A DNA stretch of 64,000 nucleotides from Calditrichaceae bacterium (lineage in GTDB: Bacteria > Calditrichota > Calditrichia > Calditrichales > JBFXGD01), in contig JBFXLE010000003.1 in NCBI GenBank assembly GCA_050173015.1, positions 96,001 through 160,000 on the forward strand, given 5' to 3'. The position numbers and the translations under genes are program-made. Of this stretch, positions 13,332 to 31,716 are shown piece after piece (position 1 is the stretch's first letter; the number at the start of each line of letters is the position of its first letter). The notes under the pieces are model-generated. The model was not told the DNA's origin. It did no database searches and worked only from the letters and a program-made list of their open reading frames with translations.

Positions 13332-16300
13332 ATGGCGACTGCAAGAAAATTCGGCACTTTTGGAGGTGTTTTTACACCTTCTATCCTGACTATTCTCGGT
13401 GTGATCATGTACCTTCGCCTCCCCTGGATACTTGGACAGGCAGGACTTTATACAACTCTCGGAATCATTCTGATTGCTCATCTTATCTCGGTAACAACAG
13501 GCTTAAGCATTTCTTCAATTGCCACTGATAAAAAGGTAAAGGCAGGAGGAAATTACTATCTCTTGTCGCGCAGTCTTGGGCTGCCGATCGGAGGAACGCT
13601 TGGTATCGCCCTGTTTGTCGGACTTTCATTGAGCGTTAGTTTATACATTATCGGATTCTCAGAAAGTTTTCTTGGTTTTATAGGTATCGAAGTTACAAAG
13701 AATACAATAAGAATAGCCGGCACCATCGCGCTTGTCAGCATTACAGTGATTACCTTAATAAGCACCTCCCTGGCAATCAAAACACAGTATATCATCATGA
13801 CCGCGATGGTGCTTTCGCTTATATCGATATTTTTTGGCGGCACTTCTTCGGAGCCGGCTCAACCTGTTCTTAAATCACTCGAAACCAGCGCCCCTCTAAT
13901 GGTACTTTTCGGCATCTTCTTTCCTGCCGTAACCGGATTTGAAGCGGGTGTTTCAATGTCAGGTGATCTGAAAGATCCTAAAAAATCAATACCGGGCGGA
14001 ACAATCACAGCCGTAGTAACAGGTCTTACTGTTTACATAATTTTGACCATCTTTCTTGCCTACCGCGTAGATGCTGAATCACTTGTGAATAATCCCAATA
14101 TCCTTCTTGACATATCATTCTTCTCCCCTCTCGTGCTTGCGGGTATCTGGGGAGCGACTATTTCATCGGCCCTCGGAAGCATCCTTGGCGCGCCCCGCAT
14201 TCTTCAGGCGACATCGGTTGACAGAATCACGCCAAAGTTTTTCGAGAAGGGCTATGGGAAGGAAAACGAACCGCGAAACGCGCTCTTACTCACATTTATT
14301 TTAGCTGAAGCGGGCATCCTTTTGGGTGAACTGAATCTAATAGCAAGAATTGTTTCCATGTTTTTCATCACCACCTATGGCTTTTTAAACTTGAGCTGCG
14401 CGATTGAAAACTGGGCCAGTAGTGACTTTCGGCCTTCATTTAAAGTACCTACCTGGATAAGTGTGATCGGTTCAGTTGCCGCTTTTTTTGTAATGATAGA
14501 GCTGGATGTAATGGCTCTTGTCGTCGCATCGCTTATCCTGGGTATAATATTTATAGCGCTAAAAAGGAGAGAACTTACTCTTGAATCCGGTGATACCTGG
14601 GAGGGAGTCTGGTCATCAATGGTTCGAACCGGTCTTCAAAAACTCAACCGCTCCGACCGTCACGCGAGAAACTGGCGCCCGAATATCATTTTATTCAGTG
14701 GCGGTACCGGCACTCGTCCGCATCTGGTGGAATTTGGACAATGGCTGGTTCATAAACGCGGGATTCTCTCAAATTTTGATCTTGTCGAGAACCCCGGGGC
14801 AAAAGCGTTATTCCCGGAAATGGGACATGATATAAAAGACAGCGAGGGAGAATTCTCCGGAGTTTTCAAAAGACGTATCGAATGTCAAAATATTTACGAA
14901 GGTATAGAAACCATTTCAAAAATTTACGGATTTTCCGGCATTGATCCAAATTCTATCATGATGGGCTGGGCCCGGAATTCAAAAAGCCCGGGTAAATTTG
15001 CTGAATTGATAAACGAATTCAACACGCTTGATTATAATGTACTCATTCTTGATTATGATAAGGAAATCGGCTTCGGGAAAAAACAAAACATCGATATCTG
15101 GTGGCGTGGAGGAAGCAATAACGCCGCGCTTGCTATGACGATGGCAAAATTCCTGCTTTCAGCGGAAGAATGGCATGACGCGCGTGTCAGAATTTTAATT
15201 GTAGTCAATGACAGCGCTCTGATTAACAAAGTATATAAAAACATGAATTTAATTTTAGAAGAACAGCGTTTGGACGCCAGGGTAAAAGTCATAAATAACG
15301 CTATCGAAAAACGAAAGTTTGAAGAAATTATCAAGGTGGAATCAGTCGATGCTGATTTATCGATTCTTGGAATCCCCGGTTTAGATGACAAAAATATTGA
15401 AGATTTTGTTACGGTTACCAATTCACTTTTGGATACTGTTGGAACAGTGCTCCTTATTCAGGCGGCCTCATTTTTTAAACCACTGTTCATCGGTATCGAA
15501 AAGACAGGTCCCGAGACTCAGAATCTTGAACTCTCTGTAGGAGAGAAATATAATTTACCCGATCTTAACCTCCCGGAAAGCGGAATTCTTTCGAAAACAG
15601 TGTCCGGTTTATCAGATCAGATCGAAAAAGAAATCCATGAATTTTTCAGCGCTTTTTTTAAAGATTTTTCGGATTCCGAGATCGGGTTCCTTACCAAACT
15701 TAATAATTTTATTGAACGGTATTTTGACAGTCTGGAAAATGCATTTACCGACAATAAACCCCTTCGTTTTCAAAAACTATTAATGCGGGTTCAAAGCGAT
15801 TATTTATTTCATTCCCGGCGCCTTCTGGATGAATTCAAATCAGAAATTCCGACGGAGCAAAAAGAGAATATTGAACAGGGACTTGATCTTTTTCTCAAAC
15901 AATTAGACACGTTGGCTGAAAACGTTTCATCAAGAGTTGGTGTTACTTTTGAGCCGTTTGAACTAAACGCTTCCGCGGATGATTCATTTCAAATCCGGAT
16001 GATGAAAATGAAAAAACGAATCATCTACCGTTTATCAAAAAAACCAATTGTCTTAAACATTGATTTAAAATTACTTGTAGAATATCATATTTTAACTGTT
16101 TTCCTAAAAAAATTATATTCTCAGCTTGATAAGACGGGAATTGAAAGATACCGCCGCATATCTGATTTACAAAAACTTTTCAACCGGATCAGGGATTCTA
16201 TAAACACGATGGAGGAAATGGCAAACAACAGGCAATTGGATGTGAATTTTATAAAAGACGAAAAGGCAAAAATATTAAAACAAGTAAAGAATTTAATAGC

Positions 16301-18473
16301 TCGGTCAGAGCAGCAATTCAGTGATTTCAGAATGGAGCTGCTGCTTCAAAATCGTGTTATCATGCAGAATATTATTTCCAGTTCAATTACAATAGACGCG
16401 GGCCGGCGTCTTAAAAAAAGATTTAAAATATCAAAATCCGATCTAAAAATAAAAGAACAAATTCTTGAGGTTCCGGCATCTTTATCAAAAAATACGGAAT
16501 TGGTGGTAAACTTTGCGTTGATGGATTTGATTTTGATGGCTTTACAGTACAGATTCAGGATAATCGTTACAAAACAGATTACTGAAATTCGGGCATCTGT
16601 GGAAAACAGACTTATAAGTAGTCTGTCAGAGCTCGAATCGGATATTAAAAACATCAAAAGCAATAAGGAACCAGAAACCGGATCTTTGATATCATGGTCA
16701 CTCGATCCGGAAGAAATTATTGATAACAGATCTGTTATTGATGAATTGGTTTCAGATATCAGAAGCGCGATCGATGAAATCCCTGAGACCGTAGATATCA
16801 TCGCCGAAAACTCCTTTCAGAATATCGAAATCAATCAATTCGATGAAACCGAAGTGGTTTCGATTTACCTGCAGCGTCTTATGGATTACCTGGTTGAGAA
16901 AGATTTTCTAACGCCGTTTAGAAAAGAGATATCATCACTTCCGATCGAATTCAGGCAGGCTGTTGGCACCGCCAGGGATGTCGTCCGTCTCATTTCTTTT
17001 AATATCTCATCATCCGGTACATCAGAGGAAACCGGAATTGATGATCTGCATGACCCCATTGAAACGATCATTGAAAAAAGTATTCAAAGAATAATCAGCG
17101 AGAGAGAGAAAATATCAAAAGATATTCAAAAAATGGAAGATTCATTATGGGGGCATTTAAACAAAACCTTTTCATCCATGAATCCTTATCTCGTCACACG
17201 TGAGATCGGGCATCTGGGTCAGTATATCAGACAGGAAGAAAGCCGGAAAGTCTTGTCCCAGGTTCAGGCCGTGAGGGAAACTGTAAAGAAGACTTTCAGA
17301 GACACTCTGATCCGGATGCTTTACAGTCAAAGCGAAGGGGTTCTGTTCGCGCGGAAGTTTACGGAGAAAGAATTCGCATATCCCGGGAGCATCAGCACAG
17401 TGATAAATATTGTTGAAAAAGTATCACCGCCCCCCGCAGTCATCAAATCGCTTCCTTTTTACTATAAACAATTATTTGTCGGCAAACATTTTATCGGACG
17501 TGAGTTCAGAATAAACCGCCACACGGAGATGAAAACCGCGGAGAAGGCGGTGAGCAGATATAAACAGGGGTTCAGCGGAGGCATTCTCATAACAGGAGAG
17601 CCGGACGCCGGAAAGTCGAGTCTGTCTAACGCAATCGCCACAAAATTTTTCGCTCACGAGAAAGTATTCCACATCTTTCCGCCGGAAACAGGCAGCATCG
17701 CTCCGGATGTCTTCACCACTCACCTGAACAGAATTTTACAAACTCAAGGCGAACCGGCTGAAATTTTTGATACCATGCCCGCGGGCAATGTATTTATTTT
17801 TAATGATCTCGAATTATGGTGGGAACGCAGTAGCAACGGATTTGTATTGGTTGATCAGATCATGAATCTGATTGATAAATTCGGCAGGAGACACTTATTT
17901 ATAGTGAATACAAATACTTACAGTCTTCGTTTTATTAACAAAATAAAACAGATTGATAATCATTTTATCAGCATTATCGAATGCACTCCTTTTGACACGG
18001 AGGATATTAAAGAAGCACTTCTCATGCGTCACCGGTCAACGGGATTCAAATTTCAACTAAACAACCACTTTGAAGACAATATTTCTGAATTCAAACTGGT
18101 GCGTTATTTTAACAAATTATTCGATTATTCCAATGGCAATATAGGCACCGCGCTACAGGGCTGGTTCAGTCATATCGACAGCGTTGCCGGTAATATACTT
18201 ACCCTTCGCGATCCGGAGCGTCCGGATTCAGACGCATTTAACAAACTTGATCCGGAATGGCTGGTATGGCTTATTCAATTTATTATTCATAAACGGCTGA
18301 CCATTGAGAAGCTGGTAAGAATTTTTAACACCGATCCGGAAAAAGTCCGGACTAAAATCGAACTTTTTAAACGTTCAGGTTTAGTTACGGAGATTCAGAC
18401 GAATCAGCTCGAGCTCAATCAGTATCTCCAACCGTTTATAATTCGACAATTTATAGAAATGGAGATTTTATGA
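13332..18473 (+). CDS. Cation-chloride cotransporter (SLC12/CCC, APC superfamily) fused to helical region and C-terminal P-loop NTPase/wHTH domain
   Basis: CCC motifs KFGTFGGVFTPSILTILGVIMYLR, AGGNYYLLSRSLG, FGIFFPAVTGFEAGVSMSGDLKDPKKSIP, GAPRILQA, RNWRPNI (~aa 446), IDIWWRG (~aa 587). Walker A GEPDAGKS at aa 1422-1429 (nt 17595-17618); Walker B-like VFIFNDLE. Confidence 0.88.
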   Translation: MATARKFGTFGGVFTPSILTILGVIMYLRLPWILGQAGLYTTLGIILIAHLISVTTGLSISSIATDKKVKAGGNYYLLSRSLGLPIGGTLGIALFVGLSLSVSLYIIGFSESFLGFIGIEVTKNTIRIAGTIALVSITVITLISTSLAIKTQYIIMTAMVLSLISIFFGGTSSEPAQPVLKSLETSAPLMVLFGIFFPAVTGFEAGVSMSGDLKDPKKSIPGGTITAVVTGLTVYIILTIFLAYRVDAESLVNNPNILLDISFFSPLVLAGIWGATISSALGSILGAPRILQATSVDRITPKFFEKGYGKENEPRNALLLTFILAEAGILLGELNLIARIVSMFFITTYGFLNLSCAIENWASSDFRPSFKVPTWISVIGSVAAFFVMIELDVMALVVASLILGIIFIALKRRELTLESGDTWEGVWSSMVRTGLQKLNRSDRHARNWRPNIILFSGGTGTRPHLVEFGQWLVHKRGILSNFDLVENPGAKALFPEMGHDIKDSEGEFSGVFKRRIECQNIYEGIETISKIYGFSGIDPNSIMMGWARNSKSPGKFAELINEFNTLDYNVLILDYDKEIGFGKKQNIDIWWRGGSNNAALAMTMAKFLLSAEEWHDARVRILIVVNDSALINKVYKNMNLILEEQRLDARVKVINNAIEKRKFEEIIKVESVDADLSILGIPGLDDKNIEDFVTVTNSLLDTVGTVLLIQAASFFKPLFIGIEKTGPETQNLELSVGEKYNLPDLNLPESGILSKTVSGLSDQIEKEIHEFFSAFFKDFSDSEIGFLTKLNNFIERYFDSLENAFTDNKPLRFQKLLMRVQSDYLFHSRRLLDEFKSEIPTEQKENIEQGLDLFLKQLDTLAENVSSRVGVTFEPFELNASADDSFQIRMMKMKKRIIYRLSKKPIVLNIDLKLLVEYHILTVFLKKLYSQLDKTGIERYRRISDLQKLFNRIRDSINTMEEMANNRQLDVNFIKDEKAKILKQVKNLIARSEQQFSDFRMELLLQNRVIMQNIISSSITIDAGRRLKKRFKISKSDLKIKEQILEVPASLSKNTELVVNFALMDLILMALQYRFRIIVTKQITEIRASVENRLISSLSELESDIKNIKSNKEPETGSLISWSLDPEEIIDNRSVIDELVSDIRSAIDEIPETVDIIAENSFQNIEINQFDETEVVSIYLQRLMDYLVEKDFLTPFRKEISSLPIEFRQAVGTARDVVRLISFNISSSGTSEETGIDDLHDPIETIIEKSIQRIISEREKISKDIQKMEDSLWGHLNKTFSSMNPYLVTREIGHLGQYIRQEESRKVLSQVQAVRETVKKTFRDTLIRMLYSQSEGVLFARKFTEKEFAYPGSISTVINIVEKVSPPPAVIKSLPFYYKQLFVGKHFIGREFRINRHTEMKTAEKAVSRYKQGFSGGILITGEPDAGKSSLSNAIATKFFAHEKVFHIFPPETGSIAPDVFTTHLNRILQTQGEPAEIFDTMPAGNVFIFNDLELWWERSSNGFVLVDQIMNLIDKFGRRHLFIVNTNTYSLRFINKIKQIDNHFISIIECTPFDTEDIKEALLMRHRSTGFKFQLNNHFEDNISEFKLVRYFNKLFDYSNGNIGTALQGWFSHIDSVAGNILTLRDPERPDSDAFNKLDPEWLVWLIQFIIHKRLTIEKLVRIFNTDPEKVRTKIELFKRSGLVTEIQTNQLELNQYLQPFIIRQFIEMEIL

Positions 18474-19228
18474 AACAGATATTTGAGCTACCGCTCTCTC
18501 AATTCGCCATCATAAAAGTTCTGATATTTGCTTTTGCTCTTTTTCTTATTATTAAACTGTTTGAGCGGATTGCAAAAGTTGTCTTTGTAAAGCGAATCTA
18601 CCGGTTATATTTTCAGCGGTACTACCCGATTCTGGAAACGGTTGTTTGGCTTCTTTTTGTCCTGTGGAGTATTGATCAGATTTTTAAGGACCGTTTATAT
18701 TACTCTGTTGCCCTTATTCTTATCATCCTGGTCACTCTTGTATGGATATCCTGGTTTGCGGTCCGGGATTTTATCGCGGGTATCATTTTTAAAGCGCAGG
18801 ATGTCTATGAAGCGGGACAATGGATTAAAATTTCTGAAATTGAGGGCCGTTTAAAAAGCATCGGATATCTATCACTGGAGATTGAAATCGAAAGCGGTGA
18901 AATTATAAAGTTTCCTTACAGTAAAATAACGGGTGTGATCCATTCAATAAGCGACCCTGAAGAACATTCCAATCATCACCGCTTCGAAATCGAACTAAAC
19001 CGGGCAAACAGCCTGAAAGAAAATGTTGAACTGCTTCGGCGGATCATATTAAATTCGCCCTGGACTTTATTGACAAAAGCTCCGCAAATACAGTTGCTCG
19101 AAGAAAACGAAAATCATTTTGTATTTGAAATATTTGTGTATTCTATCAGCAAGGAATTCTTCAGACACATTGAGAATGATGTAAAATCCTCGGCCGCGGA
19201 AGTCGGGTTGTCAGGGGTAAAAAATTGA
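18470..19228 (+). CDS. MscS-family mechanosensitive channel protein (small, divergent)
   Basis: Three TM segments followed by RDFIAGIIFK..YEAGQWIKISEIEGRLKSIGYLSLEIEIESGEIIKFPYSKI (MscS beta-domain); ATGA overlap with upstream gene. Confidence 0.75.
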   Translation: MKQIFELPLSQFAIIKVLIFAFALFLIIKLFERIAKVVFVKRIYRLYFQRYYPILETVVWLLFVLWSIDQIFKDRLYYSVALILIILVTLVWISWFAVRDFIAGIIFKAQDVYEAGQWIKISEIEGRLKSIGYLSLEIEIESGEIIKFPYSKITGVIHSISDPEEHSNHHRFEIELNRANSLKENVELLRRIILNSPWTLLTKAPQIQLLEENENHFVFEIFVYSISKEFFRHIENDVKSSAAEVGLSGVKN

Positions 19229-19278
19229 TTGCGGCCAGGTAAAATGTATGCCGGAAAAATTAAACACTCAGGAATAAA

Positions 19279-20217
19279 TTGAATTTTGTCAAGCACATTG
19301 AAAACAGCAATCAGATACAATACGACCTTTGCATTGCCTCTGACTGGACATATGACGAGGACTTCGTTTCCCTTTTGGAAACTTACGCCAGACAGAATAG
19401 CCTGTCTACCTATATTGTAAGACTTCATAATCTTGATGAAACAATTTCCCTGCTGAAGGGAAAGCGGTTGCATTTTCGGTATTTTTTTGACCGCGCTTCC
19501 GATACTTCTCCTGAATTTCTAAACTTACAGTACTTATTTTCAAAACAGGATTTACCCGTTTTTGAGACCAAGGCTCAGTTAGAATGGGCGTCAGATAAAT
19601 CGACAATGCATCTCGAGTTCATTTCAAATGGTCTAAATCTTCCCTACACTATTATACTGCCTTCATACAGAGAAACCGCGGACGTAAAATTGTCACTGAC
19701 TGATCTTACGAATCTCGGCAGACCGTTTATTATAAAACCGGCGAATACGACCGGCGGAGGTATCGGCGTGGTTAACGGAGCAGAGACTTTACAGGATGTC
19801 ATAGCGGCTCGACTGGAATTTGAATATGATAAATATCTTCTTCAGGAAAAAATTATCCCCGCGGATATTGACGGTAAAAGATTCTGGTTCAGAGGATTTT
19901 ATGCCTGCGGTGATATTTTCCTGTGTTGGTGGAATGATATTAGTCACCGTTATGAGATCATGAATCCGAATGATGAGGAAAAATATAATTTGCGAGCGAT
20001 GTATTCGATCATTGAAAAGATCGCGGAAATTTGTAAATTAAATCTGTTCTCAACCGAAATTGCCATGAATAATGAGGAAAAATTTATTATTGTGGATTAT
20101 GTGAATGAATCCTGCGATATGCGTCTTAAATCTAAACATTTTGACGGAGTACCTGATCTTATTGTTCATCAAATAGCAGAACGACTGACACAATTTATCG
20201 GAAATAAGCTGGCTTAG
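19279..20217 (+). CDS. Uncharacterised ATP-grasp fold protein
   Basis: ASDKSTMH, LPYTII, LGRPFIIKPANTTGGGIGV, YLLQEKI, FSTEIA..KFIIVDYVNE: ATP-grasp signature order. Confidence 0.75.
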   Translation: MNFVKHIENSNQIQYDLCIASDWTYDEDFVSLLETYARQNSLSTYIVRLHNLDETISLLKGKRLHFRYFFDRASDTSPEFLNLQYLFSKQDLPVFETKAQLEWASDKSTMHLEFISNGLNLPYTIILPSYRETADVKLSLTDLTNLGRPFIIKPANTTGGGIGVVNGAETLQDVIAARLEFEYDKYLLQEKIIPADIDGKRFWFRGFYACGDIFLCWWNDISHRYEIMNPNDEEKYNLRAMYSIIEKIAEICKLNLFSTEIAMNNEEKFIIVDYVNESCDMRLKSKHFDGVPDLIVHQIAERLTQFIGNKLA

Positions 20218-20220
20218 TAT

Positions 20221-21783
20221 ATGGAAAAAATCATTTCGGAAATTCAGGCAAACCGGAAGAATCTTGTCGATAGCGCGATTGAGACCGTTCTTACCTCCGG
20301 ATGGAGTTCGGATATAAAAATAACCGCTCCAGAACTTGAAAAAATATTTGATAATCTTTTTGCAAGTCTTGAAAAAGATCTGGCGGCAAAAACTGAAAAC
20401 GATTTCGGCAAATATCTGTATTCAAATTATCTCCGGTCGGTAAAGAGTCTTTCTGTCTTGAAGAACAATTTTCATACGCAGTTAACGATTCTTGGCATGG
20501 CAAGAACTGTAATTAATCATTTTCTTTCTAACCTCACCTCTGTCGGAATGGAAGAAATCAGACTTAAATTTAGTATGATTCAAAAAATATTTGACCATAC
20601 ACTGATCGAGCTTAGTCAGTGGTGGGGGCAAATTTATGAGGAATTCAGAATAAGTGACCAAAAACTGATACAAGAATTAAAAATTGTCAAAGACGGCCTT
20701 CAAAAACATCTGAATGTCATATATCAGATAATTAATGAATCACCCGTGGGGGTTGTCGATTGCGATTCAGAACTTATTGTTAAACACTGGAATCCGATGG
20801 CAGTCCGGCTTACGGGATTTCAGCCGAATGAAATACTTAAAAAAAGTGTTTTATATTTTATCGCGGATCAATCGCGTCAAAAATTTCTGGAAAAAATAAG
20901 AGGCGGCAGAAAATGGATTCCAAATTTGCGGCTGTTTATAAAAACGAAAAACGACTTACCTATCCCGGTAATATTCTCGATAAGTAAAATAAAAAATGTT
21001 AACGTGGCCAATATTGTATACATCATAAACTTCCAGAGTTCGGGAAATCAAGCGGGATTTAAGTCCAATGTACAGCAATTGAATCAATTAACAGCCATTG
21101 CGCGCCTGACCAGCGCGATCATGCACGACATCAGAAACCCGCTGAATTCCATCGGACTTAATCTGGATGTGCTTGAGCAGCAATTAGTTGAACAAAATGA
21201 AAACCTGCTTACAAAGGAACATAAAAATCTCATCGCAAGAATTCAGAATGAGATCGTTCAATTAAGCAGTAATCTTAATCATTATATTACCTATAGTCAT
21301 TTATCACAGCTTCAGCTCGAGCCTCTGGATATGAACCGGCAACTGAAAATTTTTACGGATGAATCGCGTTTTGAACTCAGCCATAAAAATATAAAATTTA
21401 TTTTACGAACCGGCAGAAGCGCTTGCCGTATAATGGGTGATTGGCTTCAGCTAAGAAGAGTATTCGCGAATATCGTTCAAAATTCCGCTGAGGCCATAAA
21501 TTCGGACGGGATCATAAAGATCGTCATGCAAAAAAGAGGTTCCCGTGTTATCATTTCCATAAAAGATAACGGAGAAGGTTTGGACCCACACAAAAAAACA
21601 CAAATTTTCGAACCCTTTTTTTCCACAAAAAAATCAGGTACAGGTTTAGGTCTGTTTATTTCCCGGGAGATTGTGATGGCCCATCGCGGAAAGATTTCCT
21701 GTCGTTCAGGCAAGGACACAGGCACATTATTCACAATTAGTTTTCCGCTGGTAACCGATGAAGGAGACAAAAGAATTGCCTAA
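20221..21783 (+). CDS. Cytoplasmic PAS-domain sensor histidine kinase (NtrB-like)
   Basis: PAS (IINESPVGVVDCD..WNPMAVRLTGFQPNEIL), H-box IMHDIRNPLNSI, N-box QLRRVFANIVQNSAEA, DNGEG, IFEPFFSTK, GTGLGL; no TM segment. Confidence 0.92.
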   Translation: MEKIISEIQANRKNLVDSAIETVLTSGWSSDIKITAPELEKIFDNLFASLEKDLAAKTENDFGKYLYSNYLRSVKSLSVLKNNFHTQLTILGMARTVINHFLSNLTSVGMEEIRLKFSMIQKIFDHTLIELSQWWGQIYEEFRISDQKLIQELKIVKDGLQKHLNVIYQIINESPVGVVDCDSELIVKHWNPMAVRLTGFQPNEILKKSVLYFIADQSRQKFLEKIRGGRKWIPNLRLFIKTKNDLPIPVIFSISKIKNVNVANIVYIINFQSSGNQAGFKSNVQQLNQLTAIARLTSAIMHDIRNPLNSIGLNLDVLEQQLVEQNENLLTKEHKNLIARIQNEIVQLSSNLNHYITYSHLSQLQLEPLDMNRQLKIFTDESRFELSHKNIKFILRTGRSACRIMGDWLQLRRVFANIVQNSAEAINSDGIIKIVMQKRGSRVIISIKDNGEGLDPHKKTQIFEPFFSTKKSGTGLGLFISREIVMAHRGKISCRSGKDTGTLFTISFPLVTDEGDKRIA

Positions 21784-23128
21784 TTTGAAAGTGCTGATCG
21801 TCGATGATGAAGAAAATACTCTTCAGGCCCTGAAAATGGGTCTTAATGTGAATGGATACGAAATACTGACCGAGGTATCGCGCAATGACGCGATCAATTT
21901 GCTAAAAAAGGAAGACATTGATATTGTCATCACCGATCTTAAACTGAAAGACGGATCGGGGCTTGATATCCTCAGTTATATTCAGGAGAATAACAACCGG
22001 ATTCCTGTTATTATCATTACCGCTCACGGCTCAGTCGAATCAGCGATAGAAGCTATTCGCAGCGGCGCTTATGATTATCTTGTAAAACCATTTCGTCTGG
22101 CCGATCTAAAAAAATTATTGACCAGACTCAGCGAGACAATACTTTTACGCCGCGAAAACGAGCAGCTTAAAAGCCAGCTCCGGCCTGAGACAGGGATGAT
22201 TCAATTAATCGGCGTGAATCAGCGTTTTAAGAGAATTATTGAATTTATCCGACAAATCGCCTCATCAAGAAGCACAGTCTTAATCACCGGCGAGACAGGC
22301 ACCGGGAAAGAAGTTGCTGCTAACGCTATTCATTTTTACAGTCAGCGTTCAGCAAAATCCTTTGTTAAAATCAACTGCGGGGCCATCCCGGAAACATTGT
22401 TGGAAGCCGAATTATTTGGATATGAACGCGGCGCTTTTACCGGGGCAGTTAAACAAAAAAAGGGTAAAATCGAGTTGGCGAACGACGGAACGCTTTTTTT
22501 AGACGAAATAGGTGAACTCTCCCCCTCCATGCAGGTGAAATTGCTCCGTGTTTTACAAAATGGAGAGTTTGAACGTCTGGGGGATACGGTCACACAGAAG
22601 GTGGACGTTCGTTTTATCGCGGCCACTAACGTGAGTTTGAAGGAACGCGTCTCCCTTGGAACATTCAGGGAAGATCTGTACTACCGTCTAAACGTCATGA
22701 CAATTCAAATGCCTTCACTCAGGGAAAGACTGGATGACATCCCCTATCTCGTTCAATATTTTATTGAAAAATATAATAACATTAATTCTAAAAGCGTACA
22801 GGGAGTGACCCCCGAAGTTATTAAACAAATGATGCGCTACCCCTGGCGCGGCAACATTCGTGAACTGGAGAATATGATTGAAAGAGCTGTTGTGCTTTGT
22901 CAGAATGACTTTCTAAAAGCAGAACATTTTCCAATGCTGCTGGAAGATATTGATGATGCTCAGCGCATGATAAAATTTGAAGTTGGCCATACGCTTTCTG
23001 AGATAGAAAAATCAGTTATTCAACGCACACTGCTATACTACCAGTATGATAAACAAAAAACAGCAATGACGTTGCAGATAAGTTTGGCGACCCTTTACAG
23101 AAAAATAAAAGAGTACGGATTGGAATAG
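21758..23128 (+). CDS. sigma54-dependent response regulator (REC-AAA+-Fis HTH, NtrC/AtoC family)
   Basis: VLIVDDE, ITDLKL, GETGTGKE, INCGAIP, GAFTGA, TLFLDEIGE, FREDLYYRL, WRGNIRELEN, ATLYRKIKEY. Confidence 0.96.
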   Translation: MKETKELPNLKVLIVDDEENTLQALKMGLNVNGYEILTEVSRNDAINLLKKEDIDIVITDLKLKDGSGLDILSYIQENNNRIPVIIITAHGSVESAIEAIRSGAYDYLVKPFRLADLKKLLTRLSETILLRRENEQLKSQLRPETGMIQLIGVNQRFKRIIEFIRQIASSRSTVLITGETGTGKEVAANAIHFYSQRSAKSFVKINCGAIPETLLEAELFGYERGAFTGAVKQKKGKIELANDGTLFLDEIGELSPSMQVKLLRVLQNGEFERLGDTVTQKVDVRFIAATNVSLKERVSLGTFREDLYYRLNVMTIQMPSLRERLDDIPYLVQYFIEKYNNINSKSVQGVTPEVIKQMMRYPWRGNIRELENMIERAVVLCQNDFLKAEHFPMLLEDIDDAQRMIKFEVGHTLSEIEKSVIQRTLLYYQYDKQKTAMTLQISLATLYRKIKEYGLE

Positions 23129-23141
23129 ATACATCTTTTCA

Positions 23142-23237
23142 TTATCATTTTGATATTTATTACCCCCTCATTTGAACAATATTCTCAAAATGAGAACCAA
23201 TATCACCATCATAAATCCTATTTTATCATTTTGAGAA
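23142..23237. promoter_or_regulatory. Three palindromic enhancer (UAS) sites TT(A/C)TCA-n3-TGA(G/T)A
   Basis: TATCA-TTT-TGATA (23143-23155), TTCTCA-AAA-TGAGAA (23182-23196), TTATCA-TTT-TGAGAA (23223-23237); centres 40 and 41 bp apart. Confidence 0.7.
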
Positions 23238-23281
23238 TATACGTATTCATCCCTCACCGGTCCTCACTTTTATACAGCTAA

Positions 23282-23294
23282 TAAATGCTTGATA
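23282..23294 (-). promoter_or_regulatory. Putative IHF binding site
   Basis: Minus strand TATCAAGCATTTA matches WATCAAnnnnTTR and lies between the UAS sites and the sigma54 core. Confidence 0.55.
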
Positions 23295-23323
23295 TTATTG
23301 TGTTTACTTGCTGTAAATAATCA

Positions 23324-23340
23324 TTGGCACGTTTATTGTA
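23324..23340 (+). promoter_or_regulatory. sigma54 (-24/-12) promoter
   Basis: TTGGCACGTTTATTGTA versus consensus TGGCAC-n5-TTGCW; one mismatch at the -12 C; directly downstream of a sigma54 activator gene. Confidence 0.75.
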
Positions 23341-23389
23341 ATTTACACACAAAACATGTTAACCGTTGATTATCCGAGAGGTAAGGATC

Positions 23390-24490
23390 ATGAAAATCGC
23401 GCTTACGTTCAGCAGTAAAAATGGACTGCTAAATGAATACAAAAAGAGAGCAGGCTCTATCAACCATATTAATGAGATACCGCAGGATTTTTTCGCCGAG
23501 GGTGATAGTATGGTGACTATAAACGCAGTGATTGATGCTTTAACCACTGCCGGACATGAAGTCACCGGTATCGAAGCAAATGATCAGGCTGCCGAGAGAT
23601 TGGATGAACTGAGCCCTGAACTGGTTTTTAACATGGCCGAAGGACTTTTTGGCGATTTCCGTGAATCATATATACCTTTAATATGCGAGAGGCTCGGCCT
23701 TCCATATACCGGTTCTGACCCTCTTACTCTGGCCATCGCGCTAAATAAAGCGCGTACAAAAGAAATTTTAACCTATTACGGTATTCCAAATCCGCAATTC
23801 AGAATTTTTTTCCCTTTACATGAAATTGATCTGAACGGCTTTGAATTCCCGGGGATTATTAAACCGGTTTCAGAGGGCAGCAGCAAGGGAATATTCAACG
23901 ATTCAGTAGTATATGATTCTTACACAGCCGGTCAAAAAATCAGAGAAAAATTACTGCAATATAATCAGCCGGTACTTTTAGAAAAATTTCTCACCGGACG
24001 TGAATTTACTGTAGGTATCTGGGGAAACGGCAACAATGTGGAAGTTTTACCGATTGTTTCCATCGACTATTCTGAGCTTCCGGAAGGCGCTCACCCCATA
24101 TACTCCTACGAAGCGAAATGGATTTGGGATACACCGGAAAAACCGTTAAATATTTTTGAATGCCCGGCGGATATTTCTTCATCACTTCTCAAAAAAGTTG
24201 AAGAAGTCGTAAAAGATACCTACAGGGTGATGAGAATCAGAGACTGGTGCCGTGTTGATGTGAGGCTCGACGGCGACAATATTCCAAATGTACTTGAATT
24301 GAATCCTATACCCGGAATCCTTCCGGACCCGAAAGAAAATTCATGTTTTCCAAAGGCGGCGAGAACAGCCGGATACAATTACGTAGAAATGCTCGACAGA
24401 ATTATCGCCATAGCGGCCAAAAGATATGATCTGAAAAGTACAATTCCACAGTTGATGGAAAGGGAACTTCCGATACTGAATGTTGGATAA
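23390..24490 (+). CDS. D-Ala-D-Ala ligase-like ATP-grasp protein (non-canonical), copy 1
   Basis: FNMAEGLFG..RESYIPLICERLGLPYTGSD..LNKARTK, IIKPVSEGSSKGI, EKFLTGREFTV, RVDVRLD, LELNPIPG. Lacks the Ddl N-terminal GGxSxE(H/R)xVS motif. Start ATG 23390 after AAGGA. Confidence 0.85.
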   Translation: MKIALTFSSKNGLLNEYKKRAGSINHINEIPQDFFAEGDSMVTINAVIDALTTAGHEVTGIEANDQAAERLDELSPELVFNMAEGLFGDFRESYIPLICERLGLPYTGSDPLTLAIALNKARTKEILTYYGIPNPQFRIFFPLHEIDLNGFEFPGIIKPVSEGSSKGIFNDSVVYDSYTAGQKIREKLLQYNQPVLLEKFLTGREFTVGIWGNGNNVEVLPIVSIDYSELPEGAHPIYSYEAKWIWDTPEKPLNIFECPADISSSLLKKVEEVVKDTYRVMRIRDWCRVDVRLDGDNIPNVLELNPIPGILPDPKENSCFPKAARTAGYNYVEMLDRIIAIAAKRYDLKSTIPQLMERELPILNVG

Positions 24491-24537
24491 TTCAACTTTA
24501 AAATGATGGTGGGAATACGGGTAGAGAGAAAACCAAA

Positions 24538-25572
24538 ATGGATAATTCAAAAATTAAATACAAGGTGATGATCGCTTATAACGAACCGGACCCGGAAAGC
24601 GGTGAAAAATCAATTGATTTTTTATCAGAGGAAGCGGTGAAGGATGAAGCGGAAGCCGTTTACGATACGCTACAGAAATCCGGCCATCAGGTGGAATACA
24701 TCGCTATTCATGATCTTGACAATGATCTTAAAAAAATCCGGACATATCAACCTGACGTGATATTTAATTTGTGTGAAGGATTCCGGGGCAATGCAAGACA
24801 TGAGATGCATATGGCGGGATTTTGGGAATTGCTGGGAATTCCTTACACCGGAAACAACGCGTTAACGCTTGGTATCGCGCAAAATAAGGTATTGACTAAA
24901 AAATTATTGGAATCGAAAAAGATATCAACTCCGATGTATCAGGTATTCCGGGAAGCCCCGGCTAAAACATATTTAAGTTATCCCCTAATCGCGAAACCCG
25001 CGCAGGAAGATGCCAGCCTTGGAATCACACAGAAATCGGTAATTGAAAATTTCGATCAGTTATATTCTGTGGTAGATGAATTGATAAATCGTTATCGGCA
25101 GCCCGTTCTTGTGGAAAAATTTATTCCCGGGAGAGAATTTAATGTCAGTATTCTCGGCAATAAAAATCCCAGAGTTTTACCGATCTCTGAGATCAATTTC
25201 GGGGACGTTCACAAGAAGTACCACCGGATAACGAGCTATGAAGCAAAATGGCTGACCGATCATGAACTATATAAAAAAACGCCTGCTGTCTGTCCCGCGG
25301 ATATATCAGATGAACTGAAATCAAAACTGGCGGACACAGCTTTGCAGGTTTATCAGTTATTAAACGGCCGGGATTACGGCAGAGTTGATATCCGGCTTGA
25401 TATGTCTGAAAAAATTTATGTTCTGGAATATAATCCCAATCCCGATATTTCCCCGGACGCCGGTTATTCAAGATCATTGAAGGCGGCCGGTATAAAATAC
25501 AGTGAATTTGTCGAGCTTCTTCTAAGGGAAGCATTAGAAAGGACTGAAATTGATAAATATCCGAAAAATTGA
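24538..25572 (+). CDS. D-Ala-D-Ala ligase-like ATP-grasp protein (non-canonical), copy 2
   Basis: IFNLCEGF, GIPYTGN..QNKVLTK, IAKPAQEDASLGI, EKFIPGREFNV, YGRVDIRL, LEYNPNPDI. Confidence 0.85.
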   Translation: MDNSKIKYKVMIAYNEPDPESGEKSIDFLSEEAVKDEAEAVYDTLQKSGHQVEYIAIHDLDNDLKKIRTYQPDVIFNLCEGFRGNARHEMHMAGFWELLGIPYTGNNALTLGIAQNKVLTKKLLESKKISTPMYQVFREAPAKTYLSYPLIAKPAQEDASLGITQKSVIENFDQLYSVVDELINRYRQPVLVEKFIPGREFNVSILGNKNPRVLPISEINFGDVHKKYHRITSYEAKWLTDHELYKKTPAVCPADISDELKSKLADTALQVYQLLNGRDYGRVDIRLDMSEKIYVLEYNPNPDISPDAGYSRSLKAAGIKYSEFVELLLREALERTEIDKYPKN

Positions 25573-26029
25573 GTCAAAAGACCGCGAGCCGGTTTATGAG
25601 ATTCTCCAGCAGACCGATATGTTTTCTCCGGCTGAAATCGATGTCGCCATGGAGCTCATCGATACCGTTCTGTTTAATAAAGATCAAAAGGATTATCTGA
25701 TATACGTCGGCGAAAGCAAAGCGAACGAAGTTGTCGGGTATGTATGTTACGGCCCCACGCCCGCGACAGAAGGTACTTTTGATCTGTACTGGATTGCGGT
25801 ATCACCCGCGTTTCAGGGAAAAGGCGCCGGAAAAGAATTATTACACTTTATTGAATCCGAAGTCAAAAACAAAAATGGCAGATTGATCATTATTGAGACA
25901 TCCTCTCAATCCAAATATCTGCCGACTCGTGAATTTTATCTGAGGAATAAATATAAAATAGCAGCGCAAATTAAAGATTTTTATCGCATGGGTGATGATC
26001 GTGTCATCTTTGTAAACTATTTCCATTAA
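25550..26029 (+). CDS. GNAT family N-acetyltransferase
   Basis: VGYVCYGPTP..EGTFDLYWIAVSPAFQGKGAGKELL (acetyl-CoA motif A), IETSS..Y..TREFY. Confidence 0.9.
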   Translation: MINIRKIESKDREPVYEILQQTDMFSPAEIDVAMELIDTVLFNKDQKDYLIYVGESKANEVVGYVCYGPTPATEGTFDLYWIAVSPAFQGKGAGKELLHFIESEVKNKNGRLIIIETSSQSKYLPTREFYLRNKYKIAAQIKDFYRMGDDRVIFVNYFH

Positions 26030-26050
26030 GTATCGGAGGTATAGAATAAA

Positions 26051-27169
26051 ATGGAGCGATGGAGAAAAATTCTTCAGCAGAGTGTCACAAGTATTGAAGA
26101 GATTTCCAGGAGATTTGATATTCCTCTTGATGAATTGAGAGGGCTTGATGATGAATTTAATATTAAAATTACGCCTTATTATCTTTCCCTGATTAAGGAA
26201 AAAGGCGATGCCATATATAAGCAAATCATTCCGGATAAAGCCGAACTTATTGATGATGGCCTTCTGGAAGATCCGTTGGCGGAGGATCAGTTCTCGCCGG
26301 TAGCAAACATTGTGCACCGTTACCCGGACAGGTGTCTGTTTCTGGTCGCGCATGCATGCGCCTCCTATTGCCGCTTCTGTACCCGCAAAAGAAAGGTCGG
26401 CGATCCATCAAAGATCAGCTTAAAATATCTGGACGACGGCTTTGAATATATCGCCAGTCATCCTGAGATTCGTGACGTCATCATTTCAGGAGGTGATCCA
26501 CTGATACTTGCCGATGATAAACTTGAATATATTTTACAAAAGCTGCGGCAAATTCCACATATTCAAATTATCCGCATTGGAAGCCGCATTCCATGCTTTC
26601 TGCCTCAAAGAATTACAACAAAACTCGTAAATATGTTAAAGAAGTATCATCCATTGTTCATCAACGTGCATTTCAACCACCCGGATGAACTCACTCCGGT
26701 TGCGGTCAAGGCTTTGGGAAGACTTGCAAACGCCGGAATACCTTTGGGAAATCAGACTGTCTTGCTAAAGGGGGTAAATGATGACCCTGAAGTGATGAAA
26801 AAACTGATGCAGAAATTACTTAGCGCCCGTGTGCGGCCTTACTACATTTATCAGGCCGATATGGTTTTTGGCACAGCGCACTTCCGCACTCAGGTTGAAA
26901 AAGGCCTTGAGATTATCGAAGCCTTGCGCGGATGGACATCCGGACTTGCTGTTCCGCACTTTGTAATCGACGCCCCGGGAGGCGGCGGGAAAATCCCTAT
27001 TTTACCGCAGTATATGCTAAAAATGAATGATGATGAAGTCATCCTGCGTAATTATAAGGGAAAAGTCTACCGATATAAGCAGCCATCGGGTAACGGTAAA
27101 ATGCACATTGAAGAGATGCTGGAATATGTTTCCGAAAATAACGGTACAGATAAACATGTAATTATATAA
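26051..27169 (+). CDS. kamA: KamA family radical SAM/PLP enzyme, probable lysine 2,3-aminomutase
   Basis: HRYPDR, CASYCRFCTR (CxxxCxxC), ISGGDPL, HFNHPDE, NQTVLLKGVND, RPYYIYQAD, VIDAPGGGGK (PLP lysine). Confidence 0.9.
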   Translation: MERWRKILQQSVTSIEEISRRFDIPLDELRGLDDEFNIKITPYYLSLIKEKGDAIYKQIIPDKAELIDDGLLEDPLAEDQFSPVANIVHRYPDRCLFLVAHACASYCRFCTRKRKVGDPSKISLKYLDDGFEYIASHPEIRDVIISGGDPLILADDKLEYILQKLRQIPHIQIIRIGSRIPCFLPQRITTKLVNMLKKYHPLFINVHFNHPDELTPVAVKALGRLANAGIPLGNQTVLLKGVNDDPEVMKKLMQKLLSARVRPYYIYQADMVFGTAHFRTQVEKGLEIIEALRGWTSGLAVPHFVIDAPGGGGKIPILPQYMLKMNDDEVILRNYKGKVYRYKQPSGNGKMHIEEMLEYVSENNGTDKHVII

Positions 27170-27235
27170 TGATAGTGGTATATTAATCAGCGGATTTGAA
27201 TTTTCTCTTTCTGTTGAAGACAAAACACCTGGAAA

Positions 27236-28990
27236 ATGAGGATAAGTTTAGTGTTCAGAATAAGGCGTATTTATGATGATCTGATCCCGATTGATCGAAT
27301 CGCGATTGCTCAGGTTCAGGCGATCCTGAGATCACAATTTCCCGAGATAAAAGAAGATGAAATCATCAAACTCCCGGAGAAGCTGCACAATCCGCTCAAA
27401 TACCGTTTCCGCTCCATTTTGTTCGTCGCGGATGACGTAAAGGGGCAGGTAAAAGGATTCGCGTTTGTTTTGCACGATGCGGATTATAAATTCTGCTATC
27501 TCGATTTCATTTCCGCCGCAAAACAGATGACCGGACGCGGCATTGGCGGCGCGTTATACGAGCGCGTTCTCAAAGAAGCCTTATCACTGGACACGATCGG
27601 ATTGTTTTTTGAATGCCTTCCGGACGATCCGGTATTAAGTCCTGATCCAGTGATCAGAAAACAGAATATTTCACGGCTAAAATTTTATGAAAATTTTGGC
27701 GCCAGGCCAATCATAAATACCGCTTATGAGACACCTTTAAATCCTGATGATACCGATCCGCCATATCTGGTCTTTGATAGTATCGGACAAGATAAGACCT
27801 TGTCAAAAAAACATTTGCGCAAAATTATCAGAGCGATCCTGGAACGGAAATATGGTGACCTTTGCCCGGTTGAATATGTTGATATGGTAGTTTCTTCCGT
27901 AAAGGACGATCCCGTAAAACTTCGTGATCCCTTGTATGTTAAAACGGAGATACCGGAAAAGAACCCTTTAAAAACTCCGGCTGACAAAAAAATCGCTTTG
28001 GTAGTCAATGACAAACATATGATCCATCATGTTAAAGAACGCGGTTATGTGGAATCACCGATCCGCATAAAAACTATCCTTAAAGAACTTGATAGGACTG
28101 ATCTTTTTGAAACAATCCCCGTCAAGCATTATTCAGACCGGCATATTCGCGCTGTTCATGACGGACGTTTTGTCGATTATCTCCGAAATGTTTGTAAAAA
28201 TGTAAAACCGGGGAAATCCATCTACCCGTATGTGTTTCCAATTCGGAACTCGGCGAGGCCTCCAAAAGATCTGCCGATCAGAGCAGGCTACTATTGTATT
28301 GACACATTTACTCCGTTAAATCAAAACGCCTATCTCGCAGCGGTGCGCGCTGTTGATTGCTCGCTTACCGCGGCTAATCTGATCCTTGAAGGCCGAAGAC
28401 TGGCATACTCACTTGTGCGGCCTCCGGGACATCATGCCGAACACAAATCATTCGGCGGGTTTTGTTATTTCAATTCTAACGCCGTCGCGGCAAACTATTT
28501 AAGCGCTTATGGAAAAGTGGCGATTTTGGATGTTGATTATCATCATGGTAACGGGCAGCAGGATATATTCTACAAACGTTCCGATGTTCTGACTGTCTCT
28601 ATTCATGGTCATCCGCGATTCGCTTATCCATATTTCAGTGGATTTGAAGATGAAAAAGGGATAGATGCGGGAGATGGATTTAATCATAATATTCCTCTGC
28701 CTGAAAAAATTGACGGGAAAAAATATTCCGATTCTCTGGACAGGGCGCTGAAAATTATCAAAAAATTCAAACCGCAATTTTTGATTATCGCGCTTGGTCT
28801 CGATCCGGCAAAGGGCGACCCCACAGGTTCGTGGGATCTTCAGGCTAAGGATTTTGAATCGAACGGTATTAAGATAGGAGAATTGAGACTCCCAACCCTT
28901 GTTATTCAGGAAGGCGGATATAATAACCGAAATCTCGGGATAAACGCCCGATACTTTTTTTCCGGATTATGGAAAAGTATTTTCGATTAA
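27236..28990 (+). CDS. GNAT + histone deacetylase/acetylpolyamine amidohydrolase fusion protein
   Basis: N-terminal GNAT (YLDFISAA..TGRGIGGALYERV..FFECLPDD). C-terminal Zn deacetylase: RPPGHHA, GGFCYFN, ILDVDYHHGNG, SIHG, LGLD..KGDP, QEGGY. Confidence 0.88.
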   Translation: MRISLVFRIRRIYDDLIPIDRIAIAQVQAILRSQFPEIKEDEIIKLPEKLHNPLKYRFRSILFVADDVKGQVKGFAFVLHDADYKFCYLDFISAAKQMTGRGIGGALYERVLKEALSLDTIGLFFECLPDDPVLSPDPVIRKQNISRLKFYENFGARPIINTAYETPLNPDDTDPPYLVFDSIGQDKTLSKKHLRKIIRAILERKYGDLCPVEYVDMVVSSVKDDPVKLRDPLYVKTEIPEKNPLKTPADKKIALVVNDKHMIHHVKERGYVESPIRIKTILKELDRTDLFETIPVKHYSDRHIRAVHDGRFVDYLRNVCKNVKPGKSIYPYVFPIRNSARPPKDLPIRAGYYCIDTFTPLNQNAYLAAVRAVDCSLTAANLILEGRRLAYSLVRPPGHHAEHKSFGGFCYFNSNAVAANYLSAYGKVAILDVDYHHGNGQQDIFYKRSDVLTVSIHGHPRFAYPYFSGFEDEKGIDAGDGFNHNIPLPEKIDGKKYSDSLDRALKIIKKFKPQFLIIALGLDPAKGDPTGSWDLQAKDFESNGIKIGELRLPTLVIQEGGYNNRNLGINARYFFSGLWKSIFD

Positions 28991-29180: not shown

Positions 29181-29735
29181 ATGAACGACGGCGAATTAAT
29201 TCAGCTTCTCGTCAAGAAAGACCGGTCTGCTCTCAGGCAGTTTGTTGAGCAATACCAGTCTCTTGTCATCAATACAGCCTATCATATTATTGGCAATCAA
29301 AATGATGCAGAAGATGTCGCACAGGATGTTTTCCTTCAGATTTATAATTCCGCCGGAACATTTGAACAAAAATCAAAATTATCCACCTGGATCTGCAGGA
29401 TTACCGTTAACCGGTCACTTAATTTTATCCGGGATAACAGAAAATTCAGTCTGCTGCGAAGTTTCGATGAATTTATTGATGGTGAAGTTAAAGAAATCGC
29501 GGATCCCGAACCCCCTGATCAAATTCTCGAAGCCAAAGAAACGGGAAAAATCATTGAACAGTTACTCGAGTCCCTCCCGGAAAATCAAAGAGTCGCCTGG
29601 ATTCTGCATCAATATAATGACCTGCCTTACCAGGAAATCGTGAAAATTATGGATTTATCCCTATCCTCCATCGAATCACTGATATTCCGCGCCAGAAAAA
29701 ATCTACAAAAAAAATTATTAAATCACATAAAATAA
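29181..29735 (+). CDS. ECF RNA polymerase sigma-70 factor
   Basis: DAEDVAQDVFLQIY, LSTWICRITVNRSLN, LPENQRVAWIL..LPYQEIVKIM..SIESLIFRARKNL. Confidence 0.93.
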   Translation: MNDGELIQLLVKKDRSALRQFVEQYQSLVINTAYHIIGNQNDAEDVAQDVFLQIYNSAGTFEQKSKLSTWICRITVNRSLNFIRDNRKFSLLRSFDEFIDGEVKEIADPEPPDQILEAKETGKIIEQLLESLPENQRVAWILHQYNDLPYQEIVKIMDLSLSSIESLIFRARKNLQKKLLNHIK

Positions 29736-29743
29736 TTTTATCT

Positions 29744-29776
29744 GCGCAAGTTTCCATATAAATCCGTGTCTTATAT
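29744..29776 (+). promoter_or_regulatory. Possible ECF-type promoter upstream of the anti-sigma gene
   Basis: GCGCAAG...GTGTCTTATA resembles the AAC/AAG..GTC(T) bipartite ECF promoters; pattern judgement only. Confidence 0.3.
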
Positions 29777-29797
29777 TGTAAACGGAGACCAAAGAAC

Positions 29798-30771: not shown

Positions 30772-30854
30772 TTTAATTGTTTGGAAACGGGCATAAAATC
30801 GTAAATGTCCTCATATTGACAATCAATTATTTATATTTTTAGAGGGAGAATTTT

Positions 30855-31649: not shown

Positions 31650-31716
31650 AAATTTTAAACCCTTATGTTAGTTACCACATACTTTAATTTAAACTGATAT
31701 TGAAATGGAGTATTGA

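Follow-up and report, generated by a model that had tools for sequence, protein, structure and literature searches.

The region at positions 13332-28990 of a 64,000-nucleotide stretch of Calditrichaceae bacterium DNA (the window; GenBank assembly GCA_050173015.1, contig JBFXLE010000003.1, positions 96,001 to 160,000 of the forward strand) encodes an ion-transport module (unit A, 13332-19228), a three-gene set of an ATP-grasp enzyme, a histidine kinase and a sigma-54 activator (unit C, 19279-23128), and a five-gene beta-lysine cassette (unit B, 23390-28990). The original prediction had joined these genes into one osmotic system. The present analysis revealed that the units recur separately across genomes, and the region is therefore likely to be a genus-specific juxtaposition of an ion module, a cassette and a lineage-specific add-on, each conserved in its own right, and not one system. 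The features concerned are as follows.

13332..18473, + strand: fusion of an SLC12-type cation-chloride cotransporter (CCC) and an AAA+ module, 1713 amino acids (aa), by Pfam, motifs and predicted structure
18470..19228, + strand: small divergent MscS-like membrane protein, 252 aa, with MS_channel_2nd; its start overlaps the fusion stop (ATGA)
19279..20217, + strand: third ATP-grasp enzyme, 312 aa, of a family without a Pfam model, by predicted structure
20221..21783, + strand: soluble PAS histidine kinase, 520 aa, with PAS_9, HisKA and HATPase_c
21758..23128, + strand: NtrC/AtoC-type sigma-54 activator with REC, AAA+ and Fis-type HTH domains and GAFTGA
23182-23196 and 23223-23237: palindromes TTCTCAAAATGAGAA and TTATCATTTTGAGAA, presumed activator sites, the two best matches in the window
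23325-23339, + strand: predicted sigma-54-type promoter TGGCACgtttaTTGT, 51 bases before ATG 23390, the sole such motif in the window
23390..24490, + strand: Ddl-like ATP-grasp ligase 1, 366 aa from ATG 23390, with Dala_Dala_lig_C (2.3e-29)
24538..25572, + strand: Ddl-like ATP-grasp ligase 2, 344 aa, with Dala_Dala_lig_C (3.4e-33)
25550..26029, + strand: small GNAT acetyltransferase, 159 aa, with Acetyltransf_1 (1.1e-11)
26051..27169, + strand: KamA-family radical-SAM aminomutase, 372 aa, short cassette type, with Radical_SAM and LAM_C
27236..28990, + strand: fusion of a GNAT (residues ~1-250) and an acetylpolyamine-amidohydrolase-type deacetylase (~270-580)

The co-orientation and junctions reported earlier were all confirmed in the open reading frame (ORF) listing, in which ten consecutive + strand ORFs span the region. 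The fusion and MscS-like genes (13332-18473 and 18470-19228) share a 4-base ATGA overlap, 19279-20217 and 20221-21783 are 3 bases apart, and 20221-21783 overlaps 21758-23128 by 26 bases. Behind the activator gene, which ends at 23128, a gap of 261 bases leads to the second unit (23366/23390-24490, 24538-25572, 25550-26029, 26051-27169 and 27236-28990). Pfam and NCBIfam searches also bore out the domain identities that had been assigned. However, co-orientation is weak evidence on its own, because the + strand run extends at least to 34088.

Linkage was compared among 86 genomes of the phylum (G-numbers, G000 being the source genome with its contigs C1 and C18) and fetched loci (L-numbers) from three starting points: the third ATP-grasp gene (its best 80 genome loci), the CCC-AAA+ fusion gene, and the GNAT-deacetylase gene (80 metagenome loci). 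The CCC gene was found in 0 of the 79 third-ATP-grasp loci outside the near-identical same-genus L004, whose contig end held the only MscS fragment of the 80 loci, and CCC and MscS genes were absent from all 80 metagenome loci. Among 16 fetched CCC-AAA+ loci, only that of the same-genus G038 continues from the CCC-AAA+/MscS pair into the third ATP-grasp gene; the 15 of other genera, two of whose contigs end within or just after the MscS-like gene, showed no cassette genes past it wherever sequence exists there. Both modules were present in six of the 86 genomes, compared with ~3.6 expected by chance, and were adjacent only in G000 and G038. The other four two-module genomes carry them on different contigs, and in two of these 8-9 kb past the MscS-like gene is free of cluster genes. 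The neighbourhood comparison that had been proposed as a check thus found the transporter and biosynthetic halves essentially unlinked outside this genus, which does not support their treatment as one system.

In the one-system reading, the CCC-ATPase would sense or move ions, the relay would pass the signal on, a beta-lysine solute would be made and the MscS protein would release it. Several observations count in its favour and weigh against separate units. In this genus the genes are tightly packed, and in addition to the ATGA, 3-base and 26-base junctions the gap between the MscS-like and third ATP-grasp genes is only 50 bases and contains no terminator-like site; therefore, read-through is possible and may couple unit A to the regulators in a genus-specific manner. 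The same arrangement is present in G038, and near-identical DNA was indicated in runs labelled marine, landfill and sludge metagenomes. Moreover, by an uncontrolled tally several relatives carry ion or Na+-coupled transporters no more than two genes away from the cluster (SNF in L006 and L015, a Na/H exchanger-TrkA_N plus TerC in L009, a Na/Ca exchanger in L012 and L043, and CorA in L014), and a loose association with ion homeostasis may be real rather than due to chance. On the other side stand the missing linkage beyond the genus, the separate contigs of the four other two-module genomes, the affiliation of the MscS-like gene described below, and the upstream regions: neither the CCC gene nor the third ATP-grasp gene is preceded by the palindromes, no sigma-54 motif precedes the CCC gene, and unit A lies outside the predicted kinase-activator regulon. 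One salt-responsive system of ten genes is hence unlikely. As the idea of one big osmotic system rests on genus-specific adjacency, annotators should be cautious about merging such modules.

Unit A was recovered as a module of its own, with the full-length CCC-AAA+ fusion in 18 of the 86 genomes. The protein comprises an SLC12-type cotransporter (residues ~1-700), a mostly helical linker of ~600 aa, and a C-terminal AAA+ part with lid and winged helix (~1400-1713). The transporter part matched AA_permease (7.5e-47, 160.5 bits) and SLC12 (1.1e-7, 31.7 bits), both above the Pfam cut-off, and the closest solved relative of the N-terminal 700 residues was KCC1 (8.7e-77). With an APC-fold transmembrane domain and an SLC12 C-terminal domain it belongs to SLC12; the full-length, eukaryote-based model TIGR00930 scored 393.6, below its cut-off of 953.4. 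For the AAA+ part, the window protein has the Walker A GEPDAGKS, and alignment of the C-terminal ~410 residues with eleven relatives (12 sequences) uncovered a conserved Walker A (GExxxGKS/T), a DLE Walker B and an RHRSTG motif. Its predicted structure (pLDDT 84) gave 2fna (archaeal AAA+), RuvB, ORC2, Cdc6/Orc1 and PAB2304 as top Foldseek matches. Because the motifs are conserved and the predicted structure matches ORC/Cdc6, 2fna and RuvB, this part is assigned to the ORC/Cdc6-like AAA+ ATPases with lid and winged helix, and the earlier label NTPase holds. Compared with the eukaryotic SLC12 proteins (KCC1-4, NKCC1 and NCC), which match the bacterial transmembrane domain and part of the SLC12 C-terminal domain, the bacterial protein adds the ~600-aa helical arm and the ORC/Cdc6-like AAA+ module and has an MscS-like partner gene. 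No description of a bacterial CCC-ATPase fusion or of its MscS pairing was found in the literature searched. Stand-alone proteins of ~1000-1040 aa that match only the helical arm and the AAA+ part were also detected in many genomes of the phylum (e.g., G058:C16:18576-20156, P0134), and some of their relatives are labelled AAA_16, AAA_22 or BrxC/BrxD-type in precomputed Pfam annotation.

The MscS-like protein scored 35.4 bits with MS_channel_2nd (cut-off 20.2) and has three hydrophobic segments; its best PDB match was only 0.0017, and no NCBIfam model matched. Its gene lies directly 3' of the CCC-AAA+ gene in 15 of the 16 fetched loci across the phylum and belongs with the transporter. As the gene accompanies the transporter and not the cassette, its protein is not a valve reserved for the pathway product, whose release had originally been proposed as its role. 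Within unit A, the cotransporter would probably move salt under the control of an ATPase switch, translationally coupled to its own MscS-like protein.

The cassette is likewise conserved independently of its neighbours in the window. The GNAT-deacetylase family numbers 4338 proteins and is found in at least 552 metagenome loci, placing the cassette in thousands of bacteria, most of them anaerobes. In the 80 metagenome loci examined, GNAT-deacetylase identities were 57-71%, and the two Ddl-like ligases and KamA were present in 28 of the 39 loci with >4.5 kb of upstream sequence; the same 80 loci contained the third ATP-grasp gene in 3 cases and the activator in 4. Of the 86 genomes of the phylum, 17 carry the ligase 2 orthologue, which was taken as the marker of the cassette. 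In other lineages the cassette is accompanied by divergent MarR-like regulators in 13 loci and by major facilitator superfamily (MFS) transporters in 7, and its operon includes a MarC gene in 8; a further GNAT and an M20 peptidase are also among its companions. Both the cassette and the CCC-AAA+/MscS pair are widespread modules, for neither of which a describing paper or an assigned function was found in the literature searched; the osmolyte passages of one source (10.1101/536078) do not concern the beta-lysine cassette.

Unit C behaves as an addition to the cassette. The third ATP-grasp protein has 3006 relatives, its family is found in at least 587 species genomes, and among the best 80 genome loci the gene adjoins the cassette or the regulators in 18, in two different arrangements. 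The cassette is present in 16 of the 80 loci, accompanied by the activator gene in every case in which the contig is long enough, and in two further loci (L010 and L035) the kinase and activator are present and the contig then ends. The third ATP-grasp enzyme is thus a lineage-specific companion of the cassette, and together with the kinase and the activator it represents an addition of Calditrichota and related lineages. The protein had no Pfam match, but its predicted structure (pLDDT 90) has the ATP-grasp fold, matching Ddl, LysX/ArgX and RimK in Foldseek (E 1e-14 to 1e-11, TM 0.6-0.7), and the label given to it earlier stands. In L007 (2273-4425) and L008 (7835-9969), co-directional genes for DUF1611 and an enolase-superfamily (MR_MLE) racemase/epimerase directly precede the third ATP-grasp gene; one of these two relatives is named KSB1 and the other uncultured Cytophagia.

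Regarding the chemistry of the cassette, ligases 1 and 2 (37% identity) both retain the catalytic R-x-D and E-x-N residues (R-V-D and E-L-N in ligase 1). They scored only 174.7 and 156.0 with the Ddl subfamily model, compared with a cut-off of 243. The GGxSxE motif, which the two bona fide Ddl proteins encoded elsewhere in the genome (355.8 and 506.9 bits) carry near the N terminus, is missing from both, indicating that neither is a true Ddl. In both, moreover, the Y of the Ddl K-Y pair, a motif with a recognised role in these enzymes, is replaced by W. Compared with the Ddl/Van ligases, they thus share the ATP-grasp fold, Dala_Dala_lig_C, R-x-D and E-x-N, and differ in the subfamily score, GGxSxE and this W for Y; the likeness of the third ATP-grasp protein to Ddl is limited to the fold. 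The ligase 1 ORF opens at TTG 23366, in frame with ATG 23390, and since GAGAGGTAAGGA precedes the latter, ATG 23390 is predicted as the most likely start.

The aminomutase scored 477.7 bits with the AblA model TIGR03820 (478.8 on a second search), short of the cut-off of 525.4, and hence is not assigned to that equivalog. Aligned to 2a5h_A (1e-117), it conserves CxxxCxxC and the positions D293, D330 and K337, of which we take the first two to hold the lysine epsilon-amine and the third to be the pyridoxal phosphate lysine in 2A5H. With these KamA residues in place, the enzyme is a probable lysine 2,3-aminomutase, and beta-lysine is therefore a likely intermediate. In a quick tree the short cassette aminomutases (354-394 aa) formed their own clade (SH-aLRT 99), apart from two 'long' cassette clades. 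A recent origin as an AblA copy was tested in the same tree, which placed the AblA type of the phylum in a separate clade (SH-aLRT 99) joined to the short type by a near-zero branch.

For the acetyl transfer steps, the small GNAT did not match the AblB model TIGR03827, and its best NCBIfam match was rimI (1.3e-10), below the cut-off. The GNAT-deacetylase gave a strong Hist_deacetyl match (1.4e-74, 251.6 bits) and a weak GNAT match, again with no TIGR03827 match. The closest solved relatives of the deacetylase were acetylpolyamine amidohydrolases (6phr, 2.1e-66; 3q9b, 1.2e-56), and it contains PPGHHA, DVDYHHGNG and EGGY, in which we presume the HH pair, the D-x-H zinc ligands and the catalytic Tyr of the HDAC class to lie; by fold and motifs it is a predicted acetylpolyamine amidohydrolase of this class. 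Some relatives encode the small GNAT and the deacetylase protein as a single polypeptide of 750-785 aa, and these activities are therefore tied together. Overall, the KamA-type enzyme would convert L-lysine to beta-lysine, the two Ddl-derived ATP-grasp ligases would form one or two amide bonds, the small GNAT would add an acetyl group, and the GNAT-deacetylase fusion would add or remove acetyl groups. These enzyme families point to a small acetylated beta-lysine amide or short peptide as the probable product.

A pathway going beyond the AblAB route, as had been proposed, was borne out by the presence of the canonical genes elsewhere in the same genome, at the following position.

G000 contig C1 ~193.9-197.6 kb (L084 5944-9558), minus strand: ablA-symporter-ablB operon, all above NCBIfam cut-offs

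There, canonical ablA (785.5 bits), a sodium/solute symporter gene and ablB (334.4 bits vs a cut-off of 205.1) are consecutive, and the cassette is therefore not the known acetyl-beta-lysine route. AblA-type genes were found in 11 of the 86 genomes, 5 of which also hold the cassette. The cassette resembles the AblA/AblB pathway, which makes N-epsilon-acetyl-beta-lysine in methanogens and some bacteria, in combining a KamA-family aminomutase of conserved lysine-binding positions with an acetyltransferase. It differs in the two Ddl-like ligases and the GNAT-deacetylase fusion, accompanied here by the third ATP-grasp gene, in the sub-threshold AblA score of its aminomutase, and in having no AblB-type acetyltransferase (TIGR03827) beside the aminomutase, as neither cassette GNAT matches that model in NCBIfam. 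The N-acetylglutaminylglutamine amide (Ngg/AsnO) pathway likewise produces an osmolyte, an N-acetylated dipeptide-like solute, by the acetylation and ligation logic of a GNAT and an ATP-grasp enzyme; it uses other enzyme families and another substrate than beta-lysine, and the cassette lacks an amidotransferase and has a deacetylase. A salt or osmotic role for the cassette is possible.

With respect to regulation, the original prediction of a full sigma-54 promoter ahead of the second unit held in most but not all respects. The motif is TGGCAC-N5-TTGT, whose -12 element reads GT and not GC, one departure from consensus, and a search of the window for the exact consensus TGGCAC-N5-TTGC gave 0 matches. 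In 15 of 16 related loci, the stretch separating the activator gene from the first cassette gene carries a TGGCAY-N5-TTGN motif; the remaining locus, L019, is truncated upstream. In addition, the genome encodes rpoN (421.7 bits vs a cut-off of 277.35), and the activator matched Sigma54_activat (2.2e-71), Response_reg (5.2e-27) and HTH_8 in Pfam, with GAFTGA read in its sequence. Promoter motif, GAFTGA activator and rpoN are thus all present, with the GT departure at -12, supporting predicted sigma-54 control of the second unit. Small ORFs were observed between the promoter and the first ligase gene in L022 (1819-2450), L043 (3747-4250) and L019 (~300-480), one encoding a 93-122-aa protein without a family and the other a highly charged Lys/Arg/Asp/Glu-rich peptide of ~60 residues, reminiscent of hydrophilins.

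The -24 element is preceded at a distance of 143 bases by the palindrome TTCTCAAAATGAGAA and at 102 bases by TTATCATTTTGAGAA. A palindrome 141-143 bases upstream is kept in all 10 related kinase-plus-activator loci, and second sites ~41 bases from the first occur in 8 of the 10, at 100-102 (six loci) and 182-184 (four). Genome-wide, paired palindromes 38-44 bases apart precede 2 of 166 sigma-54-like motifs, and none of 2000 random positions. The architecture of the predicted promoter and its candidate sites is established by this conservation, and the activator may well bind the palindromes, ~100 and ~140 bases upstream, and thereby fire the TGGCAC-N5-TTGT promoter of unit B. A one-mismatch palindrome copy, TTCTCAGCTTGATAA, was also noted at 16118-16132 inside the CCC-AAA+ coding region, with no nearby sigma-54 motif, and is probably due to chance. 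Lineages without the kinase have an activator with a weak receiver domain and, by eye, different upstream repeats of the form CGGAAC-N5-GTTCCG. No hydrophobic segment was detected in the kinase, which carries the H-box HDIRNPL and has ~165 N-terminal residues that match no family. The unit thus resembles NtrC/AtoC systems in its REC-AAA+-HTH activator with GAFTGA, its cognate HisKA kinase, the upstream sites and the -24/-12 promoter, and differs in the soluble kinase with an N-terminal domain without a family, in a -12 element of TTGT, TTGA or TTGC in this lineage, and in its predicted targets, namely the beta-lysine cassette and an L,D-transpeptidase operon.

The latter operon was identified at the only other place in the genome with the sigma-54 and paired-palindrome layout of the cassette promoter.

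G000 contig C18 ~49.7-53.5 kb (L215 3790-7460): L,D-transpeptidase operon with predicted promoter TGGCACaccctTTGT and three palindromes

It encodes a 204-aa lipoprotein, two YkuD-type L,D-transpeptidases and a 275-aa protein without assignment. Given the shared promoter and site layout, the kinase-activator pair therefore probably switches on both operons together. In L010, L020 and G083 the third ATP-grasp and kinase genes flank orthologues of all four genes, a sigma-54 motif and palindrome accompany the operon in L010, and in G080 it is on the cassette contig, ~5.4 kb away. Moreover, the larger transpeptidase was present in 13 of the 86 genomes, with the cassette in 10 of these 13 and in 7 of the 73 without it, counts that are not independent, as only four genera carry both. 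The link is clear only in this genus and L010: the transpeptidase operon of G057-G059 has a sigma-54 motif with different upstream repeats, that of G082 has a sigma-54 motif with no clear palindromes, and that of G083 has no motif. No paper joining an L,D-transpeptidase with sigma-54 was found in the literature searched. On this reading, the kinase-activator pair would switch on the beta-lysine pathway together with cell-wall cross-link remodelling, probably as a response to envelope or turgor stress. The sigma-54 two-component switch and its second operon offer a first regulatory handle on when the pathway comes into use, together with a link to cell-wall or turgor stress that can be put to the test.

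The co-regulated transpeptidases also raise the question of whether the product is itself a cell-envelope building block, a beta-lysine peptide whose free amine deacetylation would expose, and which would be exported and attached to or exchanged into peptidoglycan by the L,D-transpeptidases. The promoter and palindrome architecture shared in this genome, the position of the transpeptidase operon within the cluster (L010, L020 and G083) or near the cassette (G080), and the descent of the ligases from the cell-wall enzyme Ddl are consistent with this, and sigma-54 regulons have been proposed to centre on the cell exterior (PMC3162934). Cassettes elsewhere carry MarC-type and MFS membrane proteins as potential exporters, but the cassette of the window has no export gene. 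Furthermore, transpeptidase genes are missing from the majority of cassette loci (the query used detected none across the 80 metagenome loci), the operon occurs in just 10 of the 17 cassette genomes of the phylum, and two parallel stress responses fit the co-regulation equally, so that an envelope building block is a doubtful reading. An extension of it, in which a two-target envelope regulon has the L,D-transpeptidases graft an amine-bearing beta-lysine peptide onto peptidoglycan and the CCC/MscS pair is transcriptionally hitched to the regulators, is quite unlikely; if true, it would mean a stress-induced, non-canonical cell-wall modification in Calditrichota, with ion uptake and wall remodelling coordinated in the genus.

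The companions of the cassette in other lineages bear on a further alternative, that the product is an exported bioactive metabolite, such as an antibiotic-like beta-lysine peptide, with acetylation and deacetylation serving self-protection and activation. MarR-like regulators (13 loci), MFS (7) and MarC proteins (8) and an M20 peptidase would suit such a role, and in the case of streptothricin acetylation of the beta-lysine amine confers self-resistance. However, the cassette content is widely and uniformly conserved, with the GNAT-deacetylase identities given above across 80 loci, a pattern seldom expected of a specialised antibiotic; no non-ribosomal peptide synthetase, polyketide synthase or tailoring diversity is present, and here the cassette is predicted to be co-regulated with cell-wall enzymes. 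A bioactive metabolite is accordingly very improbable.

A last alternative is that the enzymes modify a protein instead of making a small molecule, in parallel to RimK (ATP-grasp), RimI (GNAT) and EpmB (KamA family), in which case the deacetylase would be a protein lysine deacetylase. In this direction point the sub-threshold rimI match of the small GNAT, the name 'RimK family' that a source gives to a close relative of the third ATP-grasp protein, and the match of the EpmB model to the aminomutase (235.6 bits). The EpmB score is far under the AblA score and under its own cut-off of 369.3, the ligases are Ddl-like and not RimK-like, the deacetylase is closest to small-molecule acetylpolyamine amidohydrolases, and the cassette contains no EpmA-like partner or conserved target protein gene, leaving protein modification extremely unlikely compared with the small acetylated beta-lysine product favoured here.

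The surroundings of the region showed further features. Right after the cluster, window positions 29181-34088 encode an ECF (extracytoplasmic function) sigma factor, a zf-HC2 anti-sigma factor, an LTXXQ/CpxP-like periplasmic protein, a 264-aa protein without assignment, a TolC-like OEP and an HlyD-type adaptor, together resembling an envelope-stress and efflux block, whose first two genes are also present in the same-genus L004. The MFS gene upstream of the region (11748-12926) was considered as a counterpart of the MFS genes that accompany the cassette elsewhere and was rejected, since it shows no similarity to them. Finally, a terminator-like hairpin with a T run was found at 28935-28961, ~30 bases ahead of the GNAT-deacetylase stop codon and not past it.

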